Positions 53,209 to 63,884 of a stretch of DNA of 64,000 bases are shown piece after piece. Under the pieces are notes generated by a model. The model searched no databases. It was not told the origin of the DNA and saw only the letters and a list, made by a program, of their open reading frames with translations. Each line of letters starts with the position of its first letter. The stretch's first letter is position 1. The translations under genes were made by a program, and so were the position numbers. Source of the stretch: Pseudomonadota bacterium (GTDB taxonomy: Bacteria > Desulfobacterota > Desulfobacteria > Desulfobacterales > JBDRRP01); assembly GCA_043825735.1 (NCBI GenBank), contig JBDRRP010000040.1:62001-126000 (forward strand), in the 5' to 3' direction.

Positions 53209-53607
53209 TAGAGCCGTTCACTGGTCACATTATTTATGAAAGCAATTCTTACTACCAAATATTGGTTGATGCGTGCTATCGGCGCATTGAGAACATTTCG
53301 TTGACTTTCTCCCAATTATTGAAATGGGAAAATGAATCAATAGATTCTGGCCGTCGACTCTGGTATTTTGAATCGCCTCAAAGGTCGCATAAAGGCACGC
53401 GACAGTCTCTTGTGCAACCGGTCGTTCAATCGATGACGCAGCGACGCGCTCTTAAGCCACTTTTCCTAGCGGCGTCTCGGTAACATCGATGATACTCTTG
53501 ATAGCTGGTGGCGCAGAAATCACACGCTCTGAGTTCTTCCGCCAGACCCGGAAACGCCGGTTTGTTGTCACCGCACGCGCCAAACGCTACCCGCCCGCAC
53601 CGGCCTG

Positions 53608-55539
53608 TCAGTGCCGGCGGATGTCGTTAATTAAACCGCCGGCCATTACTATCCTGAGCTGTCTGCCGCTTAATGAATGGCTTAGGAGATAGGTCCGGTT
53701 GCGTGTAATATTACGGGCATTCAACCGTTGGCTCGATGGCAATAATGTCCGCAAACCCTCCAGTCGCAGAACGTCATCCTGATGAATATTTTCCCAGTCT
53801 GCCGGATTCTCAAACGTCAGTGGCAGGATGCCGAAATTGACGAGGTTTTGAGCGTGGATGCGCGCAAAGCCTTTGGCCACTACGGCCCGTAGTCCTAAAA
53901 ATCGCGGTGCCAGGGCGGCGTGCTCGCGGCTGGAGCCCTGACCGTAGTTGTTTCCGCCCACCACAAATGAACCGCTGCTTTGGCAGGCCATTGCACGAGT
54001 ATAGTAGGTGTCGTCGATGCGGCTGAAGGCATATCGGCTGATTTCAGGAATATTGCTGCGCAGGGGCAGTACTGCCGCACCAGCCGGCATAATCTCATCG
54101 GTGGAGATATCGTCGCCCATTTTGAGGAGCACCGGTCCTTCAAGATAATCGGGAAGTCCGCTGAAATCAGGTAGCGGTTTGATGTTGGGACCCTTTTCCA
54201 ATTCAACTTTGCCATCGACTGCTTCCGGGGCCACCAACAGTGCCGTGTTGATGTGCAATCCCGTCGGTGGGATAAATTGCGGATAAGGGATATCCAACGT
54301 TCGCGGATCGGTAATGACACCGGTAAGAGCCGATGCCACGGCCGTCTCCGGGCTGCACAGATAGACTTGGTCTTCTACGGTTCCGGACCGCCCTGGAAAG
54401 TTACGCGGTACCGTGCGCAGGCTAATCTTCCCGGTTGCCGGTGCCTGCCCCATGCCGATGCATCCGTTGCACCCGGCCTGGTGAAACCGTGCTCCGGTCT
54501 TGACCAGAGAATCCATCAACCCTATTTCGATCAAGTTCTCGATGAGCTGACGCGAGGTGGGATTGACATCGAAAGAGATGTGATCGGGCACCTGCCTGCC
54601 GGTCACCATCAGGGCCGGTATCGCAAAGTCTCGCAAACCGGGATTGGCCGAAGATCCGATGTAAGCCTGGTAGATGGGGCGGCCCGCCACTTCACGGACG
54701 GGCACCACATTGCCAGGGCTGCTGGGTAGGGCAATGAGCGGTTCAAGGCGTGACAGGTCGATTTCATCGCTTTCATCATATTGGGCTCCGGCATCGGCCA
54801 CTATTTCGCGCCAGGCGTCGCCACGGCCTTGTTCGGTGAGAAATTGTCGCACGGCATCATCCGAAGGAAAAATCGTGCTGGTAGCCCCGAGTTCGGTGCC
54901 CATGTTGGCGATCACGTGACGATCCATGGCCGTCAACTCTCTTAACCCCGGCCCAAAATACTCAATGATTCTGCCCCGGCCCCCGTCAACACCGTGGCGG
55001 CGCAGCATCTCCAGGATCACATCCTTGGCGCTGACCCACTCGGGCAAATGGCCGGTCAGGCGAACGCCCATTACCGTTGGCATGGCGATATAAAGTGGTT
55101 TGCCGGCCATGGCAGTGGCTACCTCCAAGCCGCCGGCACCAAAGGCCAGCATACCCAACCCTCCTGCCGCTGGGGTGTGGCTGTCCGAACCCACCAGGGT
55201 CTTGCCTGGTACCCCGAACCGCTGCATATGCAGCGGATGGCTTACACCATTGCCTGGACGGCTGTACCACACGCCGAACTTTTGGCAGGCGCTGCGCAAA
55301 AAAAGGTGGTCGTCGGCATTGCGATAGTCCGTCTGCAACAAATTGTGATCGACATACTGGGCGGACACCTCGGTGCGTACCCGGCCGATGTTCATGGCTT
55401 CGAACTCCAGCATGACCATCGTGCCGGTGGCATCTTGGGTCAGTGTCTGATCGATTCTAAGCCCGATTTCTTCACCCGGGTTCATTTCGCCCTCGACGAG
55501 GTGCGCGGCAATGAGTTTTTGGGCAATATTTTTGGCCAT
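53608..55539 (-). CDS. Aconitate hydratase, short type
   Basis: QDATG, DHN, DSHT, GCNGCIG, RNFPGR, STDEI, NYGQGSSREHA. Confidence 0.92.
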   Translation of the reverse strand: MAKNIAQKLIAAHLVEGEMNPGEEIGLRIDQTLTQDATGTMVMLEFEAMNIGRVRTEVSAQYVDHNLLQTDYRNADDHLFLRSACQKFGVWYSRPGNGVSHPLHMQRFGVPGKTLVGSDSHTPAAGGLGMLAFGAGGLEVATAMAGKPLYIAMPTVMGVRLTGHLPEWVSAKDVILEMLRRHGVDGGRGRIIEYFGPGLRELTAMDRHVIANMGTELGATSTIFPSDDAVRQFLTEQGRGDAWREIVADAGAQYDESDEIDLSRLEPLIALPSSPGNVVPVREVAGRPIYQAYIGSSANPGLRDFAIPALMVTGRQVPDHISFDVNPTSRQLIENLIEIGLMDSLVKTGARFHQAGCNGCIGMGQAPATGKISLRTVPRNFPGRSGTVEDQVYLCSPETAVASALTGVITDPRTLDIPYPQFIPPTGLHINTALLVAPEAVDGKVELEKGPNIKPLPDFSGLPDYLEGPVLLKMGDDISTDEIMPAGAAVLPLRSNIPEISRYAFSRIDDTYYTRAMACQSSGSFVVGGNNYGQGSSREHAALAPRFLGLRAVVAKGFARIHAQNLVNFGILPLTFENPADWENIHQDDVLRLEGLRTLLPSSQRLNARNITRNRTYLLSHSLSGRQLRIVMAGGLINDIRRH

Positions 55540-55557: not shown

Positions 55558-55690
55558 GATGAAACCGTAAAAAGTGATTTTGAACCACAGAGACCGCAGA
55601 GGACCACAGAGAATATTATGAATAATTAATTAGTTATCTCTGCGCTCTCTGCGTCCTCTGTGGTGATTTCATACTTTTTACGAATTTGTC
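55558..55690. mobile_element. 133-bp MITE, copy 4
   Basis: GATGAAACCGTAAAAAGT...ACTTTTTACGAATTTGTC flanked by AAAGTT on both sides. Confidence 0.92.
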
Positions 55691-55713: not shown

Positions 55714-56097
55714 TCAGGGGATTAAATGCGGAAAATCAACGGCGATTCCATAGCAGGGCCTTCCATCTGGGGTTCCCAAATTCATGCTTCTGTTTACTTT
55801 CGCGACGGTATGAAACCGCAATTCCTGGCAGGCCTCAGCCGGTGTAGGCTTCCCTGCGCAGTAATAGGGTCGCGGCAATCCAGAATCACCCTCGCTTTCC
55901 GTGCCACAATCCGAGGGTCTCAAAACAACACTGGTTCCGATGTGCAAGTCTTGGTCCGATTCAAAGAACATACCGCTTCGGCTGTAGTTCTTGGCGATAA
56001 CGGTGCGCCCTTCAGTTTCGTTGAGCAATGTGCAGATCATGACGGTTGTTTCTTCACACCGGGGGTGGCGGCGCAAGTCCTTTGGCGTAGGTGTCAT
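55714..56097 (-). CDS. PilZ-domain protein
   Basis: RRHPR and NYSRSG motifs, YGIAVDF. Confidence 0.8.
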   Translation of the reverse strand: MTPTPKDLRRHPRCEETTVMICTLLNETEGRTVIAKNYSRSGMFFESDQDLHIGTSVVLRPSDCGTESEGDSGLPRPYYCAGKPTPAEACQELRFHTVAKVNRSMNLGTPDGRPCYGIAVDFPHLIP

Positions 56098-56218: not shown

Positions 56219-56374
56219 TTAACAGCAGCAGGAGTATCTCGACGCCCAACCGCAGCAGGGATCGACATAGCAGCTGCAGGGATCCACGACAAAACAGCAT
56301 TGATTGCCGCTCTGGCTTTCATTTTCGGTAGTCGTAATGTCTTTTTCTTTTGGTTTTTCCTGGTCGTTGCTCAT
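56219..56374 (-). CDS. 51-aa Cys-rich peptide
   Basis: GGAGG 6 nt before ATG 56374; MSNDQEKPKEKDITTTENESQSGNQCCFVVDPCSCYVDPCCGWASRYSCCC. Confidence 0.75.
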   Translation of the reverse strand: MSNDQEKPKEKDITTTENESQSGNQCCFVVDPCSCYVDPCCGWASRYSCCC

Positions 56375-56481
56375 GTTGCGCCTCCAATCTGGGCGATATT
56401 CGTTCCGTTTACTTAATGAAGCGATTATTGGCATCATTTTGGAACCGTTGTCGCATTCCTTCTCTACACGTGTGTATCTAT

Positions 56482-56497
56482 ATCAATATCCGTGCCA
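56482..56497 (-). promoter_or_regulatory. Sigma54-like promoter with variant -12 box
   Basis: Minus strand TGGCACGGATATTGAT. Confidence 0.55.
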
Positions 56498-56659
56498 TGC
56501 ATCGAAATTCATCTAACGATTTGAAATCGAAAAATTTTTTCTCTCTGACCCCTGGTGCTTTCCACCACTATTTTGATGAAAAACAATATTTTGATGAAAA
56601 TCATCAAATTTGTGATTATTGTCACCGACAGCCCAACCGGAGGAGGGAGGAATTCACGT

Positions 56660-56905
56660 ATGCCAAACATGAAAGTCAGCAAGTACGCCGGCAAGGAAAC
56701 GCTGTCTGCGGATGTCGTCCGCTTGCGTCAGAGGATTGCCGAACTGGAGAATGCGTATGCAGCCCTTAAAATGACTGCTGAAAAACTCAGACTCGATTGT
56801 GACAGCCGCACCGCTGAAACTGTTTATCTGCGTGAAGAGCTTGCAGAGGTCCGCGCATACGGTGATATTATTGGTGATTCACCTGCACTGCAAGCGTCGC
56901 TGACC
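56660..56905 (+). pseudogene. Truncated FhlA-like sigma54 activator
   Basis: Coiled coil then ETVYLREEL...YGDIIGDSPALQ; AAA+ domain absent. Confidence 0.6.
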
Positions 56906-56944
56906 CGTTTGACAAGCCGCCCCCATCCCGATAAAGATGCCTGC

Positions 56945-57112
56945 ATCGTTCCGGAAAAACGGAATCCCGTGAAAATCGGGAGCGGGCCCGCCGCTGTGAC
57001 CCCAGAGCACCGGAAGGTGCCGGAGTTTTCCGCCAGCCGAAATAACGCCACCGACGCCGCAGGCGCCCGGGAAGGCCGCTGGCGGTGGGGAAGCCAGAAG
57101 ACGTTTCCGGGA
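56945..57112 (+). ncRNA. Cobalamin riboswitch
   Basis: AACGGAATCCCGTGAAAATCGGGAGCGGGCCCGCCGCTGTGA core, GCCAC...GGGAAGG, AAGCCAGAAGAC; TTGACA at 56909; upstream of btu-like ABC genes. Confidence 0.88.
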
Positions 57113-57194
57113 TCAGACTCCCCGCGGCCGGGAGGTTTCGGTGGCGCCGGATGAAGCGGCGCAAGCCGGATCCCCACTGAGCGTTCCCCCGCCC

Positions 57195-57248: not shown

Positions 57249-57381
57249 GATGAAACCTTAAGAAGTGATTTTGAACTACAGAGACCACAGAGGACCACAG
57301 AGAATATTATGAATAATTATTGAGTTGTCTCTGCGCGCTCTGCGTCCTCTGTGGTGATTTCAAACTTTTTTCGAGTTTTTC
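57249..57381. mobile_element. 133-bp MITE, copy 5
   Basis: Aligns with copy 4; flanks AAGGTT/AAGATT. Confidence 0.85.
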
Positions 57382-57415
57382 AAGATTATTGACTGTGGCG
57401 ATGGGATTTTGTGTG

Positions 57416-58420
57416 ATGTTGACCGGATCTAAAGGGTGGCGGATCACCATTGCGGCGATACTGGCCTGCACCATTTGGGCGGCTGCGGCCGGTGCCGATG
57501 ATGCCGCCCCCGGTGATTATTCCCTGGTCATCGCCGAGGATGCCACCACTGTCACCTATCGCAACGCCGACGGACAGGCCGTGCAGATCCGGAAACACGC
57601 CAAGCGCACCGTGGCGCTGCTCACCTCTTTGCTGGATCTGTGGATCGAGGCCGGCGGCACGGCCGTGGGCAGAAACAGCACCCGGCAGTTCGTACCCGAG
57701 CATCTGAGGAATCTGCCCGAGGTGGGCTCGTTTGCCAATCTCAACGTAGAGCGCCTCCTGGTATTGAACCCGGATCTGGTCATCTCCGCCGATCTGGGAA
57801 ATATCCGTGCCGTCATGCCGATGCTGGAAGCCAACCATACCGACATCGCGCTGTTCGACTACACCAACTACTACGACTATCGGGCCATTTTCGAACTTTT
57901 CGGCAAGCTCAACGGCACCGAGGCCCGCTGCCGGGCCGCTCTTGCCGGCGTGCAAAAGGCCGTGGACGACATTGTCGGGAAGGTGCGCGGTCTGGCCCCG
58001 CCCAAGGTGTTGATCATTTTCGCAACACCCAACATCGTCAACAGTGAACTGCCCAATTCCAATACCGGCGTCATGCTGGAAATGCTGGGCGGGATCAATA
58101 TCGTCGCGCACGCCCGCTTCGGCAAGCGGATGCGGGTCAATTTCAGCCTCGAGCGGATCGTGGAGATGGACCCGGACCTGATTCTGGTCAACACCATGGG
58201 AGACATCGGCAAGTCAAAGGACAGGCTCACGCGCGATCTCACGGAAAATGCGGCCTGGGCCACCCTGCGGGCGGTCCGGGAAAACCGCATCCACCTGCTG
58301 CCCAAGGAGCTTTTTCTTTACAAGCCCAATGCCGATTTCCCGCGGTCGTTGCAGTATCTGGCCGCCATCATGTACCCGGACGCCTTCCCTGCGGGGACCG
58401 CCGCTGCAGAAGGCAACTGA
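57416..58420 (+). CDS. btuF: Cobalamin/Fe-siderophore ABC substrate-binding protein (start may be 57401)
   Basis: Signal peptide, NVERLLVLNPDLV, SLERIVEMDPDLI, AVRENRIH; B12 riboswitch upstream. Confidence 0.8.
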   Translation: MLTGSKGWRITIAAILACTIWAAAAGADDAAPGDYSLVIAEDATTVTYRNADGQAVQIRKHAKRTVALLTSLLDLWIEAGGTAVGRNSTRQFVPEHLRNLPEVGSFANLNVERLLVLNPDLVISADLGNIRAVMPMLEANHTDIALFDYTNYYDYRAIFELFGKLNGTEARCRAALAGVQKAVDDIVGKVRGLAPPKVLIIFATPNIVNSELPNSNTGVMLEMLGGINIVAHARFGKRMRVNFSLERIVEMDPDLILVNTMGDIGKSKDRLTRDLTENAAWATLRAVRENRIHLLPKELFLYKPNADFPRSLQYLAAIMYPDAFPAGTAAAEGN

Positions 58421-58434
58421 AGGAGTCGCGCCCC

Positions 58435-59469
58435 ATGCCGGACACCGTCCCGAGCGCCACCCGGAGCGTGCTTCGCAGCCGGCGCAGCTACCGACTGGGG
58501 GTTTTGTTCGCGCTTGCGCTGCTGTGCGTGGCGGCCTTTTTCCTGAGTGTTTATCTGGGAACGCTGACACTCACGCCCGGAGACGTTCTCGCCGTGTTGT
58601 GGGGTGACGGCGACACCGCCGGGATTCGGCACCAGATCATCTGGAACATCCGGTTGCCGCGGACACTGGTGGCCGCCCTGGTGGGTATGTGCCTGAGCCT
58701 CTCGGGGTGTCTGCTGCAGGGGGTCATGCGAAACCCGCTTGCGGCCCCGCATCTGATCGGCGTGTCGGCCGGGGCCGGTCTTGCCGGGGTGATCATTCTG
58801 ATCATCTTTCCGGCCACGACCTACCTGCTCACGCCGGTGACCTTTATCGGGGCGCTGGTGACCACCGTGCTCATCTATCTGCTGGCCTGGCAGCAGGGGT
58901 TGAAACCGGTCCGTCTGATCCTGGCGGGGGTGGCGGTGTCGTCCTTTCTGGGGGCCTGGATCACGGCACTCATGCTGTTTTTCCCGGATCGGGTGCACAG
59001 CGTGCTGGGATTCATGGTGGGGGGGCTGGCCGCACGCACCTGGCAGCACCTGTTTATCATCCTGCCCTACGCGGTGGGCGGTTTTATCCTGGTGCTCGGC
59101 TGCGCCGGCCGCCTGAACCTGCTCATGCTCGGTGACGAGATGGCCCAGAGTCTGGGAATCCACGTGGAGCGCACCCGACTGGTGCTCATCGCCCTGGCCG
59201 CGCTGCTGGCCGCCAGTGCGGTGAGCGTGGCCGGGCTGCTGGGGTTTGTGGGGCTCATGGTGCCGCATATGACCCGGATGATTATCGGCAGCGACCACCG
59301 GTATCTGATTCCCGGCTGCGCGCTCACCGGGGCCGCGCTGCTCATGGCCTGCGACACGCTGGCCCGGGTGGCGCTGGATCCGGTGGAAGTGCCGGTGGGG
59401 GTTATCATGGCCCTGCTGGGGGCGCCCTTTTTTCTTTACCTGCTCAGAACCGATTTTCAACGCCGGTAG
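58435..59469 (+). CDS. btuC: BtuC/FecCD permease
   Basis: IRLPR, RNPLA, LGDEMAQSLG, GFVGLMVPH, GAPFF. Confidence 0.88.
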   Translation: MPDTVPSATRSVLRSRRSYRLGVLFALALLCVAAFFLSVYLGTLTLTPGDVLAVLWGDGDTAGIRHQIIWNIRLPRTLVAALVGMCLSLSGCLLQGVMRNPLAAPHLIGVSAGAGLAGVIILIIFPATTYLLTPVTFIGALVTTVLIYLLAWQQGLKPVRLILAGVAVSSFLGAWITALMLFFPDRVHSVLGFMVGGLAARTWQHLFIILPYAVGGFILVLGCAGRLNLLMLGDEMAQSLGIHVERTRLVLIALAALLAASAVSVAGLLGFVGLMVPHMTRMIIGSDHRYLIPGCALTGAALLMACDTLARVALDPVEVPVGVIMALLGAPFFLYLLRTDFQRR

Positions 59470-59474
59470 CCGTC

Positions 59475-60281
59475 ATGCAGATCGATCTCACCACTGTCAG
59501 CGCGGGATACGGCAAATCGCCCGATGTGCTCCGGGACATTTCCCTTAAGATCCCCAAAGGCGCGTTCGTGACCCTTATCGGGCCAAACGGCTCGGGCAAA
59601 TCGACCCTGCTTCGCGTAATTGCGGCCGTGCTGCGGCCCCGCAGCGGCAGTGCCACCATGGACGGACGCGCGCTGAGTGGCATTCCGCCGCGGCAACTTG
59701 CCCGGCGAATTTCTTTTTTGCCCCAGCAGCCGATCACTCCTGCGGAGTTTACCGTGCGGGATCTGGTGAGCTACGGGCGCCACCCCTATCTGGGGTGGAT
59801 GGGCCGCATGCAGCCCGGCGACTGGTCTGTGGTGGACTGGGCCTGCGAGATGACCCGGCTTACCGATCTGCAGGATCGTCTCGTGGGTACCCTGTCCGGC
59901 GGTGAGCGTCAGCGCGCCTGGTTGGCCTTATCCCTGGCCCAGCAATCGGACCTGCTGCTTTTGGACGAGCCCACCACGTTTCTCGACATCTGCTATCAAC
60001 TGGAGATCCTCGAGCTGGTGCGGCGCTTAAACGAGACACTCGGCATGAGCGTGGTAATGGTGCTCCACGATCTCAACCAGGCCGCCCGCTACAGTCACCG
60101 GATGCTGGCCTTGAAGGATGGCATGCTGGTGGCCGAAGGGGCTCCCGATGAAGTGATGACGCCGGCGTTTTTGCGTGATGTCTTCCGCATCGATGCGCGT
60201 CTTCACCGCGATGAAGCCCTGAACTGCCCGGTCATGGTGCCGGTGAGAAGTCTTATCGAAAAACGGAATCGCCATGGATGA
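59475..60281 (+). CDS. btuD: ABC ATPase, BtuD/FecE type
   Basis: GPNGSGKST, LSGGERQR, LDEPT, VLHDLN. Confidence 0.9.
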   Translation: MQIDLTTVSAGYGKSPDVLRDISLKIPKGAFVTLIGPNGSGKSTLLRVIAAVLRPRSGSATMDGRALSGIPPRQLARRISFLPQQPITPAEFTVRDLVSYGRHPYLGWMGRMQPGDWSVVDWACEMTRLTDLQDRLVGTLSGGERQRAWLALSLAQQSDLLLLDEPTTFLDICYQLEILELVRRLNETLGMSVVMVLHDLNQAARYSHRMLALKDGMLVAEGAPDEVMTPAFLRDVFRIDARLHRDEALNCPVMVPVRSLIEKRNRHG

Positions 60282-61519: not shown

Positions 61520-62275
61520 CTAAAAGAATAGATATTGAGATTCTGGCGCCGGGGAGGGCATGACGCGGACGTCGTCTGCGGTGATGACGGGCAGATCCCG
61601 GCCGTTGATGGGGGTGACGTGCAGGGTGCCCGTCACCCGGACCCAGTGCTCGTTTTCGATGGCGGGCGCCGGTCCCTTGTCAACCAGCACCCAGATGGGG
61701 ATGGCATCGGCCGCGCAGCAGTAAATGCCGAAGCGAAAGAGCAACAGGAACTGGGGCGGCATGTTGGCGTCGCTGTAGACCATGCCTTCAGTGACAACGT
61801 GACTGCCGTTTAGATGCTTCATGTTGCGGGCGATCTGCAGCAGGGATCGCTCGGGAAAGGTTCCATCGGCGGTGGCACCGGCGCCGTTGCCGGATTCCTG
61901 GAACATCCGGAATGCGTCGCCGGCCGTGGCCACGGTTTTTTTCGACAGGGCCTGCACCCCCATCCCCTGGCCGGCCACCATGCTCATGAACAGCACGGGA
62001 GTAAGGAGCACCATCGATTTGATGAGTGCGGCCCACCACCGTGCGTGCGGTTGATGGCCATGCGTGTTTACCGCAACGGCTGCGGCAAAACCGCAAAGAA
62101 TCGCTGCCCCAGCGGCGAGAAAGGGCCGAAACCGGGGGTGGAGAAATGCGGTGTCGTGCCCGCCCAGCAGCAGCCACCCCAGTGCCCCCAGCAGCACCAA
62201 AAACATCAGTGCGGTGCCGGCGCTGCCGAGAGTGTCATTTCGGTGCTGGTTTAAATGCGTCATCCGGTGAGCCAT
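61520..62275 (-). CDS. DUF1980/YcgQ-type permease partner
   Basis: FLHPR, three TM segments, RFGIYCCAADA, WVRVTG. Confidence 0.85.
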   Translation of the reverse strand: MAHRMTHLNQHRNDTLGSAGTALMFLVLLGALGWLLLGGHDTAFLHPRFRPFLAAGAAILCGFAAAVAVNTHGHQPHARWWAALIKSMVLLTPVLFMSMVAGQGMGVQALSKKTVATAGDAFRMFQESGNGAGATADGTFPERSLLQIARNMKHLNGSHVVTEGMVYSDANMPPQFLLLFRFGIYCCAADAIPIWVLVDKGPAPAIENEHWVRVTGTLHVTPINGRDLPVITADDVRVMPSPAPESQYLFF

Positions 62276-63300
62276 CCGTAAGCGAGCAGGGTCAGAAAAA
62301 CCGCTGAGACGGTAAAGCCCGCCAGAGCGGCGACGGCGCGTTTTCGAAAGACGCTGAGCGCATTCAGAACGAGCTTCATATCGAGCATGGGCCCCAGGAC
62401 CATGAAGGCCATTTGGGCCGTCATGGGCAGGGTGGTCCGGAATGCGGCTGCCACAAAGGCATCGGCTTCACTGCACAGGTTGAGCACGACGGCCAGAATC
62501 ATCATGGCCGCGATGGACAGTGGCATCGACCCTGCCACAGCGGCAAATGCGTTCCGTGCCACCAGAGCCTGTAGCAATCCAGCGATGAAGGCGCCGAAAA
62601 CAAGAAAGCGGCCCATATCCAGAAAGTCGGCGCTGCCATGGCGCAGGGCCTGGATCAGTCGGGCAGACCGGGACGTCGACACGATATGACCCGCTGGGGA
62701 TTCGGCTTCGAAGGGCGCCGGAATCACTGCCGCATTTTTCGAAAAGAGCCGGTCCATCACCAGTCCGATGGTTGCCGCGACGCCGTATCCCAAAAGCAGG
62801 CGATGGATGGCGATGGTGCTGCTGCCGCCATAGGCGACAGTGGTGGAAATGAATACCAGCGGATTGACGATCGGCGCCCCGAGCAAAAAGGCGACGGCTG
62901 CACCCAAGGGCAGGCCCTTGCCCAGCAGACGGCGCACCACGGGCACGATGGCGCATTCGCAGACGGGCAGCAGCAGCCCGGCGGCGGCGGCCAGAAAAAT
63001 CGCCTGCGAGCGCTTCGGCGAAAGGCGGCGCGCCAGCGCTTCCTGGGAGACGAAAACTTCGATGCATCCGCCCAGAAGTGCCCCAAGGAGCATGAAGGGC
63101 AGCGCCTCGAAGAAGATGGAGACAAAGGTGATGCCCAGTGTGATGACGGCCGGTGAGTGACGGTAGCGCGTTGCCAGAAGGATTACGGCGGCCACGAACG
63201 CCAGGTGAGAGAATAAAAACACGGCGTCCGCGACCGCGTGCCGAGGGGGGGCGGCGTGCGCCGGGGAATGCGGCATTTTAAATTCGTTCATAATACTCAA
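62260..63300 (-). CDS. DUF318/YcgR-type permease
   Basis: EALPF, PVCECAIVP, CSEADAFVA, GPMLDMK. Confidence 0.88.
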   Translation of the reverse strand: MSIMNEFKMPHSPAHAAPPRHAVADAVFLFSHLAFVAAVILLATRYRHSPAVITLGITFVSIFFEALPFMLLGALLGGCIEVFVSQEALARRLSPKRSQAIFLAAAAGLLLPVCECAIVPVVRRLLGKGLPLGAAVAFLLGAPIVNPLVFISTTVAYGGSSTIAIHRLLLGYGVAATIGLVMDRLFSKNAAVIPAPFEAESPAGHIVSTSRSARLIQALRHGSADFLDMGRFLVFGAFIAGLLQALVARNAFAAVAGSMPLSIAAMMILAVVLNLCSEADAFVAAAFRTTLPMTAQMAFMVLGPMLDMKLVLNALSVFRKRAVAALAGFTVSAVFLTLLAYGWLTG

Positions 63301-63303
63301 TCC

Positions 63304-63419
63304 GACGTTACTCGCGCCATCGCGCGTAAAACCACGAAGAATACGAAGTGCACGAACAAAAACATGAAAACAACGGGATTAATAAAACCTTCGTGTCCTT
63401 CGTGAACTTCGTGGTGATC
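63304..63419. repeat. CACGAAG-type repeat, copy 2
   Basis: Same architecture as 1089-1192 including the GACGTTAC leader. Confidence 0.85.
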
Positions 63420-63455
63420 CAAAATAACATTGAGACAATGCTGTTGAGAGAGCAC

Positions 63456-63884
63456 TCACTTGATACAGTTTTTACAGATGCCGTCCACGCGCACTTCCAC
63501 TTTGTCGATGCGCCCCGGAAAGGTCTTCCACAGGGCGTCGGTATCCACCGGAAGACTTTCCGGGGTCAGACAATCCATCTGCCCGCAGCGGGTGCAGTAG
63601 AAATGCGGGTGAGGACGGTGGTGGGCGTTGGGCGCCAGTCCGTAGTAGAAGGACCTGCCGCCGGTGCTGATGCGGTCTACGACGCCCTTTTCTACCAGCA
63701 GATCGAGGATGCGGTAGACCGTTACCCGGTTGATGGCGCTGCTGCGCGCCATCGTGGCGAAAATATCGGCGGCCGACAGGGGATAGGTGTTGTTGCCGAT
63801 AACTTCCAGAACGCCCCTTCGGTTGTCGGTGGCGTCGATGCCCGATCGCTTGAGAATGTCTTCATAATTGCATCGATGACACAT
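63456..63884 (-). CDS. zur: Fur-family regulator, probably Zur
   Basis: TVYRILD, HPHFYCTRCG, CKNC; coupled to znuB-like gene. Confidence 0.8.
   Translation of the reverse strand: MCHRCNYEDILKRSGIDATDNRRGVLEVIGNNTYPLSAADIFATMARSSAINRVTVYRILDLLVEKGVVDRISTGGRSFYYGLAPNAHHRPHPHFYCTRCGQMDCLTPESLPVDTDALWKTFPGRIDKVEVRVDGICKNCIK

Follow-up and report, generated by a model that had tools for sequence, protein, structure and literature searches.

A cysteine-repeat peptide family of Desulfobacterales-type sulfate reducers as a possible metallothionein-like buffer under apparent sigma54 control

A small peptide gene ending in a cysteine-dense core was characterized in the window, the 64,000-nucleotide stretch of contig JBDRRP010000040.1 analysed here. 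Its product is proposed, as the reading towards which we lean by a modest degree, to be an unmodified cytoplasmic buffer of thiols and soft metals that works like a metallothionein within a sigma54-dependent oxygen- and oxidant-stress module, rather than a RiPP precursor. The peptide belongs to a family which, as judged from its sequences, is unannotated and comes almost only from Desulfobacterales-type sulfate reducers. What is apparently new here is the control of the peptide by a sigma54 activator and an enhancer, together with an oxidant-defence gene set. The positions of the features are collected in Table 1.

Table 1. Features of the peptide locus and the adjoining genes, in window coordinates
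Feature	Position	Strand	Remarks
Mn/Fe superoxide dismutase, C-terminal remnant	53279..53368	minus	57% over 30 aa, E 2e-5
RCCS-type small Cys-protein remnant	53432..53551	minus	without the usual N-terminus; 55% over 40 aa, E 1e-13
Aconitate hydratase (PRK07229 type)	53608..55539	minus	recurring module member
Cys-containing PilZ-like small protein	55714..56097	minus	usual second module gene
51-aa peptide gene	56219..56374	minus	25-aa charged/polar N-terminal tail and 26-aa core with 9 Cys
GGAGG ribosome-binding site	56381..56385	minus	6 nt 5' of ATG
Sigma54 -24/-12 promoter box	56482..56497	minus	108-123 nt 5' of the peptide gene
Enhancer site 3 (TCAA-N4-TTGA type)	56565..56576	minus	67 bp from the -24 box
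Enhancer site 2	56583..56594	minus	
Enhancer site 1	56604..56615	minus	
Truncated copy of the cognate sigma54 activator, divergent	56660..57154	plus	coiled coil with one Cys and first AAA residues
Cobalamin riboswitch of the downstream BtuF/FecCD/ABC genes	56932..57118	plus	RF00174, 48.9 bits

The peptide gene and its family

The initial annotation had described the reading frame, its polar N-terminus, the nine clustered cysteines and a core with VDPC twice and a terminal CCC, and all of this was borne out by translation. The product has a mass of 5.7 kDa, contains 17.6% cysteine and lacks histidine. The strong ribosome-binding site claimed for it was located, and the gene does lie in the same orientation as the PilZ and aconitase genes, the PilZ-like protein giving a Pfam match (E 0.001) that falls under the cut-off.

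Short ORFs led by a ribosome-binding site and carrying at least seven cysteines in their last 30 residues were sought among the 364,930 stop-to-stop segments of the 6.8-Mb genome. Only two passed, the window gene and a paralog on contig C55 that is 58% identical to it (E 8e-16). This filter is weak by itself because three shuffled genomes yielded 0, 0 and 1 ORFs under the same settings. The decisive proof lies in conservation, by which the ORF is judged to be a real gene. Homologues with the conserved cysteine core, which the initial annotation had suggested looking for among relatives, were found, and 124 distinct sequences were recovered from their loci. A comparison of 82 copies of the DPCGCYVDPC core showed free variation at third codon positions, from which it was deduced that selection acts on the protein. 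The RNA reads from three runs of the same study matched only as short pieces on the aconitase gene and the riboswitch, and these apparently came from other organisms and carry no information on expression.

With a search profile built from an alignment of five seed peptides, 39 loci were found in GTDB genomes, nearly all titled Desulfobacterales, Desulfosarcina, Desulfobacteraceae or delta proteobacterium (2 were labelled otherwise). Metagenomes gave 136 confirmed stretches with the family, and 80 of these were kept. At 50% identity the family was reduced to 104 representatives, of which three long repeat proteins (P0002, P0077 and P0082) were set aside. Among the genomes searched the family has a patchy distribution and hardly occurs outside one order, that of Desulfobacterales-type sulfate reducers: matches were present in 30/301 genomes of the order, 28/301 of the class and 2/401 of the phylum, the window genome being counted each time. 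Carriers of the peptide/activator package named in record titles include Desulfosarcina widdelii, D. variabilis, D. alkanivorans and D. cetonica. Two of the distinct sequences (L110, Lachnospiraceae, and L115, Microbulbifer) were later dropped as spurious, being marginal and not family-like; the 114 with clear starts were profiled, and one with a frameshifted tail (L151) was left out of the composition counts. The modules in records titled Draconibacterium, Pseudomonadota and Hyphomicrobiales (L049/L257, L032/L284 and L321) nest among the Desulfobacterales sequences, for which mislabelling or mis-binning seems likelier than transfer.

The members are peptides of about 50 residues, in which a charged N-terminal tail precedes a core of the form CC-(YVDPCGC)n-CCC. 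Among the 114 profiled peptides the N-terminal part is mostly 20-28 residues long and consists of K, S, E and D to 64%, with no hydrophobic or conserved stretch. The core is built from 1-4 units of [YF]VDPC[GC]C, giving 7-12 cysteines per member, and it ends in CCC in 79/114 peptides. Its composition is 36% Cys (in CC and CxC motifs), 12% Val, 11% Tyr, 10% Pro and 10% Asp, and it is nearly free of histidine. Distant peptides of the regulon have a Cys-free DADG-like turn in place of the central CGC and retain the flanking cysteines, which suggests a conserved hairpin and not merely many thiols. Divergent peptides of the pattern CCCY...D-x-D-G...DPC were seen at L260:8763-8945, L282:1043-1210 and L253:8896-9078.

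Pfam and NCBIfam returned no match for the five seed peptides and scattered weak ones only for 51 aligned members. A PDB sequence search with the peptide gave nothing at E<=10, the ESM Atlas held no usable match for it, and Rfam placed no RNA family at the peptide genes of 12 loci. The AlphaFold2 model of the peptide was uninformative besides two short strands (pLDDT 53.7, pTM 0.16), and Foldseek returned no match to this model. Public records label the members hypothetical; in searches of an open-access library the motif strings of the family gave no paper, and no entry describing the family or its regulator came up.

Promoters, enhancers and the activator clade

The sigma54-like promoter that had been claimed about 110 nt upstream is backed by the -24/-12 box, by a triple enhancer and by a cognate activator. 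The window box has TTGA in place of the -12 consensus TTGC, and rpoN is encoded in the genome. Boxes of this type were found upstream of 25 of the 111 members with enough upstream DNA, compared with 38/3882 background windows. Three TCAA-N4-TTGA palindromes, with spacings of 21 and 17-18 bp, end 67-69 bp before the -24 box in 24/25 of these promoters. The 25 sigma54-type members were themselves the training set of the enhancer matrix, and it is on this footing that the array was found in 24 of them versus 0/80 of the others; it was absent from all 1250 shuffled upstream regions. In a scan of the 6.8-Mb genome with a matrix from which this genome's own sites had been withheld, the window gene ranked first (37.3 bits) and the paralog second (29.8 bits), and theirs were the only arrays to have a promoter at the fitting distance, 67-68 bp to the -24 box. 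The third-ranked array (C152) was rejected, as it lies inside a long ORF and has no promoter. From these sequence features the peptide gene appears to be under the control of a dedicated activator.

About three quarters of the members (80/105) have no enhancer and look constitutive. In non-sigma54 members a near-consensus TTGACA-17-TAnnnT promoter mostly stands some 100-180 bp ahead of the gene; a terminator was predicted within 90 nt of the stop codon in 43/64 of them versus 0/28 sigma54-type members. Such members have the look of genes that are expressed strongly and on their own. The sigma70-type promoters showed no shared operator, the top dyad occurring in 8/65.

The paralog is flanked by a divergent, intact sigma54 activator in which no GAF, PAS or other recognised sensor domain was found. 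The truncated copy in the window has no Walker A, GAFTGA or HTH element and is 29% identical over activator residues 1-146. Its homology ends at the start of the AAA domain, where the cobalamin riboswitch begins. The riboswitch sits within the truncated activator ORF and is followed by the BtuF/FecCD/ABC transporter genes (57320-60281); riboswitch and B12 transporter are possibly the insertion that broke the activator. Two similar copies of an imperfect palindrome, each about 90 bp long (55580-55680 and 57265-57370), flank the peptide/activator region in the manner of a small repeated element. A few kb from the module, positions 61520-63884 encode a Fur-family regulator, a DUF1980 protein and an ArsP_1 permease, which are likely a metal-uptake unit.

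For the activator survey, 79 GTDB loci with related DNA-binding domains were compared, 41 with a TTL[IV]E recognition helix and 38 with sister activators. Enhancer and promoter were present at 27/41 of the former versus 1/38 of the latter, about eight of these loci coming from genomes that also trained the matrix. In a quick tree search of 72 rows, with 8/79 loci left out as partial or containing N, the TTL[IV]E activators including that of this genome formed one branch (SH-aLRT 97). A Cys-x6-Cys coiled coil (C-x2-L-x3-C in the N-terminal helix) was found in 33/41 TTL[IV]E activators versus 0/38. Its cysteines lie on the hydrophobic heptad face, and the coiled coil either stands alone or is joined to a PAS or GAF domain. 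The intact activator of this genome retains the second cysteine only. The activator segment was predicted as one helix in a monomer model (pLDDT 96.6), and an ESM Atlas search with the activator N-terminus gave only unnamed clusters (<0.9). A complex prediction of the peptide with two activator coiled coils scored 0.01 and weighs neither for nor against contact between them. In these sequence comparisons the three enhancers are the signature of one NorR/PexR-like activator clade, which is apparently undescribed.

Three sites serve the hexameric activator NorR of E. coli (PMC2831303), and PexR of Myxococcus xanthus, which has a metal-binding GAF domain, drives peroxide genes from three CACCG-n6-CGGTG palindromes (PMC12754779). 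The present system is alike in that a sigma54 activator would act through three upstream palindromes; its best NCBIfam score was to NorR, below the cut-off of that model, and PexR likewise drives oxidant-defence genes. It differs in the site itself, which is TCAA-N4-TTGA, in the shared Cys-x6-Cys coiled coil (alone or joined to PAS/GAF) instead of a conserved metal-binding GAF, and in its targets, which are many small Cys proteins, MnSOD, an OsmC-like protein and aconitase. OrpR of Desulfovibrio vulgaris, a [4Fe-4S] PAS sensor that is active anaerobically (PMC12754779), is comparable as a sigma54 activator of a sulfate reducer with a link to redox state. It differs in its sensor and its setting, since activators of the present clade often lack a PAS domain and stand before genes of oxygen defence.

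Genes of the module and of related loci

The transcript order in the window is peptide, PilZ-like protein and aconitase, then the RCCS and superoxide dismutase remnants, and no minus-strand terminator was predicted between the peptide and aconitase genes. Homologues of the PilZ-like gene lie downstream in 19/122 peptide loci. To judge from the truncated activator and the two remnants, the window module is decaying.

The genes that lie behind the enhancer in relatives encode the peptide, the PilZ-like protein, several other unannotated small Cys proteins, MnSOD, OsmC-like peroxiredoxins and, further along, aconitase; an FAD oxidase, universal stress proteins and a second TrpRS are also among the products. 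The peptide gene comes first in most sigma54-type loci. MnSOD is the first gene behind enhancer and promoter in 4/5 full-length matches (with two near-identical copies in one genome), and the OsmC-like gene is first in 5/6 matches. Within 8 kb of the activator, MnSOD, an OsmC-like gene or superoxide reductase was found at 15/41 clade loci, aconitase at 8/41 (and at 5/122 peptide loci) and some small Cys protein at 28/41, each versus 0/38 controls, although such contrasts (15 versus 0, for example) are overstated because the queries came from clade loci, the loci are kin and the controls belong to other taxa.

Further small proteins were observed at these loci. At many sigma54 loci the peptide is followed by a member of an unannotated family of 63-64 residues, marked by RDITGxCxGECRDR and a tail with PPGxxGG (L029:6792-6983; L022 past 8149); this family occurs in 16/122 peptide loci and has no Pfam match. 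The RCCS-type family, whose remnant is listed in Table 1, consists of helical, unannotated proteins of 55-61 residues (L040:6774-6944) and was present at 19/41 activator loci versus 0/38 controls. An acidic mini-protein with a CCxCCCCD block follows the second trpS in an enhancer-driven operon (L234, L236, L237, L292, L294 and L306); its interpretation as a Cys-tail fusion to TrpRS was rejected, since in L292 and L306 the Cys tail is in another frame or detached, and a separate downstream small gene fits better. Other small unannotated Cys proteins of 46, 76 and 95 residues, again with no Pfam match, were seen at L292:1998-2135, L250:6911-7138 and L253:8333-8617. Operons for complex I-like (nuo) and 2-oxoacid (pyruvate) dehydrogenase enzymes adjoin the activator or module in several Desulfosarcina-like genomes (L258:1-6567, L260:12332-16163 and L024), the complex I-like operon standing beside the activator at 8/41 loci, and L257 has a catalase fragment and a desulfoferrodoxin. 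Together these suggest an oxygen-lifestyle island.

At the 67 de-duplicated non-sigma54 loci, most of the 113 nearest neighbours have unrelated housekeeping functions. At 7/122 loci, in three arrangements, the peptide gene has within about 1.1 kb either copZ with a copA fragment or the gene of a P1B ATPase of the Cu(I) type, recognised by two HMA domains and the motifs CPC, YN and MxxSS. These loci form one sigma70-type lineage with long cores, and since the linkage stays within a single lineage it represents few independent events. Single cases of a NiSOD, rubrerythrin, DJ-1 or CMD protein as neighbour were also seen.

Proposed function, alternatives and meaning

Of the options raised by the initial annotation, the metallothionein-like one gains support as a reading from the peptide's length, its cysteine content and its CC and CxC motifs. 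Metallothioneins serve in metal storage and in defence against oxidative stress (PMC7558416); the bacterial ones are known from few lineages and are often unannotated (PMC7558416, PMC13578184), and the reference given in Table 1 of PMC13578184 is about 60 residues with about 16% Cys and CC/CxC motifs. The buffer reading rests on size and composition, on the enhancer and activator clade, on the oxidant-defence regulon, on the copA/copZ lineage and on the superoxide dismutase remnant in the window.

The following mechanism is envisaged. The three palindromic enhancers precede the sigma54 promoter at fixed spacing, as seen by sequence comparison, and three activator dimers bound to them may assemble into the active hexamer, as in NorR. 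The intact activator beside the paralog would serve the window copy in trans. The coiled-coil cysteines, seven apart, may be paired at the dimer interface and respond to a bound metal or to oxidation of their thiols. In the peptide, the disordered charged tail would keep the molecule soluble, and the 7-12 cysteines of the core could bind Cu(I), Zn, Cd or iron from damaged Fe-S clusters, or be oxidised sacrificially, or both. Such buffering or sacrifice would protect enzymes such as the co-transcribed aconitase.

Several observations stand against the buffer reading. The core is rich in Tyr (11%) and Val (12%), nearly free of histidine and similar neither to SmtA-type nor to any solved metallothionein. 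Forms with the DADG turn lose their central cysteines, and CopA was found near only 2/41 activator loci. The members without an enhancer look constitutive and have mostly unrelated neighbours, the window module is in decay, and the local activator has the second cysteine alone.

The likeness to SmtA/BmtA (PF02069) and MymT consists of small size, about 16-18% Cys, CC/CxC motifs and a frequent lack of annotation. The PF02069 profile matched 0/51 family members at E<=1, and the peptide differs from these proteins in having no sequence match to them, no histidine ligands and no zinc finger. All its cysteines lie in the C-terminal half behind the charged tail, in a core that is a tandem heptad rich in Tyr, Val and Pro, and its control would be by sigma54 or plain sigma70 promoters, not by a metal-sensing repressor. 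The composition pattern described for SmtA/BmtA is Lys>Arg, Ser<Thr and Ile<=Leu (PMC13578184); the window peptide agrees in lysine over arginine (K3>R1) and departs from it in serine over threonine (S6>T3) and isoleucine over leucine (I1>L0).

Another assignment, likewise raised initially and considered rather unlikely here, is that of a carrier for Fe-S clusters or sulfane sulfur, in which the CC...DPC...CCC hairpin would hold a cluster or persulfides and re-supply damaged Fe-S enzymes such as aconitase. The recurrence of aconitase at activator and peptide loci and of the complex I-like operon beside the activator would be consistent with this, as would the loss of central but not flanking cysteines in divergent peptides and the hosts, which their record titles suggest are sulfide-rich anaerobes. 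However, the peptide matched no known Fe-S motif family, a repeat number that varies from 1 to 4 suits a fixed cluster site poorly, and no isc/suf-type family occurred among the 113 nearest neighbours.

Cys-rich RiPP precursors of the ranthipeptide/SCIFF type have a polar N-terminal part and a Cys-rich repeated core, and MNIO enzymes (DUF692/MbnB family) modify Cys RiPPs of the methanobactin/bufferin type. A precursor destined for ranthipeptide-like thioethers or another cysteine modification, with its maturase encoded elsewhere, was also raised initially, and it is now judged improbable. It would agree with the leader and repeated core layout. SPASM radical SAM genes were present in 5/5, PqqD/RRE in 4/5 and YcaO in 4/5 of the peptide-bearing genomes tested (91-100% complete), but SPASM and YcaO genes are common in the control genomes too, and MNIO was found in 0/5. 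Genes for radical SAM proteins of the B12-binding type adjoin the peptide gene at three loci (L052, L092 and L104), one of them on the same strand, whereas a radical-SAM-motif ORF was detected in only 5/122 loci, with 1 adjacent on the same strand and with 35/122 loci extending 3 kb to both sides. Unlike ranthipeptide/SCIFF precursors, the family lacks both a conserved leader motif (the best column reached 52% among 114 peptides) and a SPASM/RRE maturase encoded nearby, and it matched no precursor model of NCBIfam. No conserved maturase, protease or exporter was found among the neighbours of the peptide genes, and the terminators lying directly behind most non-sigma54 members also speak against this assignment. 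A trans-acting maturase is possible and has no positive support. On present evidence, then, the peptide would be metallothionein-like in its working without being a member of the SmtA family, and the hallmarks of RiPP precursors that were looked for are absent.

It is quite improbable that the peptide is a regulatory partner which binds the cysteine coiled coil of the activator, or passes a metal or an oxidation signal on to this coiled coil, with feedback on the regulon as the outcome. The placing of both peptide genes as the first genes behind the only two enhancer-promoter arrays of the genome with the 67-68 bp spacing, and of the peptide gene as first in most sigma54-type loci, would favour such a role. 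Against it, the enhancer is missing from most members, many activator loci have no peptide of the family, and of the 30 genomes of the order with the peptide only five (G000, G040, G042, G155 and G298) also belong to the 19 in which the activator was matched closely.

A self-assembling material appears highly doubtful. In that case disulfides or metal-sulfide would join tandem Tyr-Val-Asp-Pro-Cys units into a polymeric deposit for protection or storage, with which the hydrophobic repeat core and variable unit number are compatible, as is the abundant stand-alone expression suggested by the consensus sigma70 promoters and terminators; yet no signal peptide or export gene was found, and a reducing cytoplasm disfavours disulfide polymers. 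A Cys-sensing attenuator leader or a non-functional ORF is barely tenable and largely refuted by the codon pattern: the first ORF of the transcript does have nine Cys codons in its 3' part, but the non-Cys residues (Y, V, D, P and G) are conserved with synonymous variation, the downstream genes are not those of cysteine biosynthesis and no terminator was found within 90 nt of the 28 sigma54-type members.

Returning to the buffer reading, it is probable, as far as sequences allow, that the peptide soaks up metals or oxidants. A wider proposal is put forward more tentatively, as something that may well prove otherwise: that these loci represent an undescribed oxygen-defence regulon of the Desulfobacterales type, whose sigma54 activator would sense through paired cysteine layers in a dimeric coiled coil and whose output would comprise MnSOD, OsmC, aconitase and at least five unrelated, unannotated Cys mini-proteins, the tandem-repeat peptide being a new class of bacterial metallothionein or a protein thiol buffer.

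How sulfate reducers of sediments sense and survive oxygen is only partly mapped. The package occurs in cultured species and offers a 5.7-kDa peptide that can be synthesised, an enhancer with three defined sites and, in the cysteine coiled coil, a candidate sensor that differs from the metal-sensing GAF and PAS domains known for NorR, PexR and OrpR. Should the peptide prove to bind soft metals, it would have a bearing on the handling of copper and mercury in these sediment bacteria.
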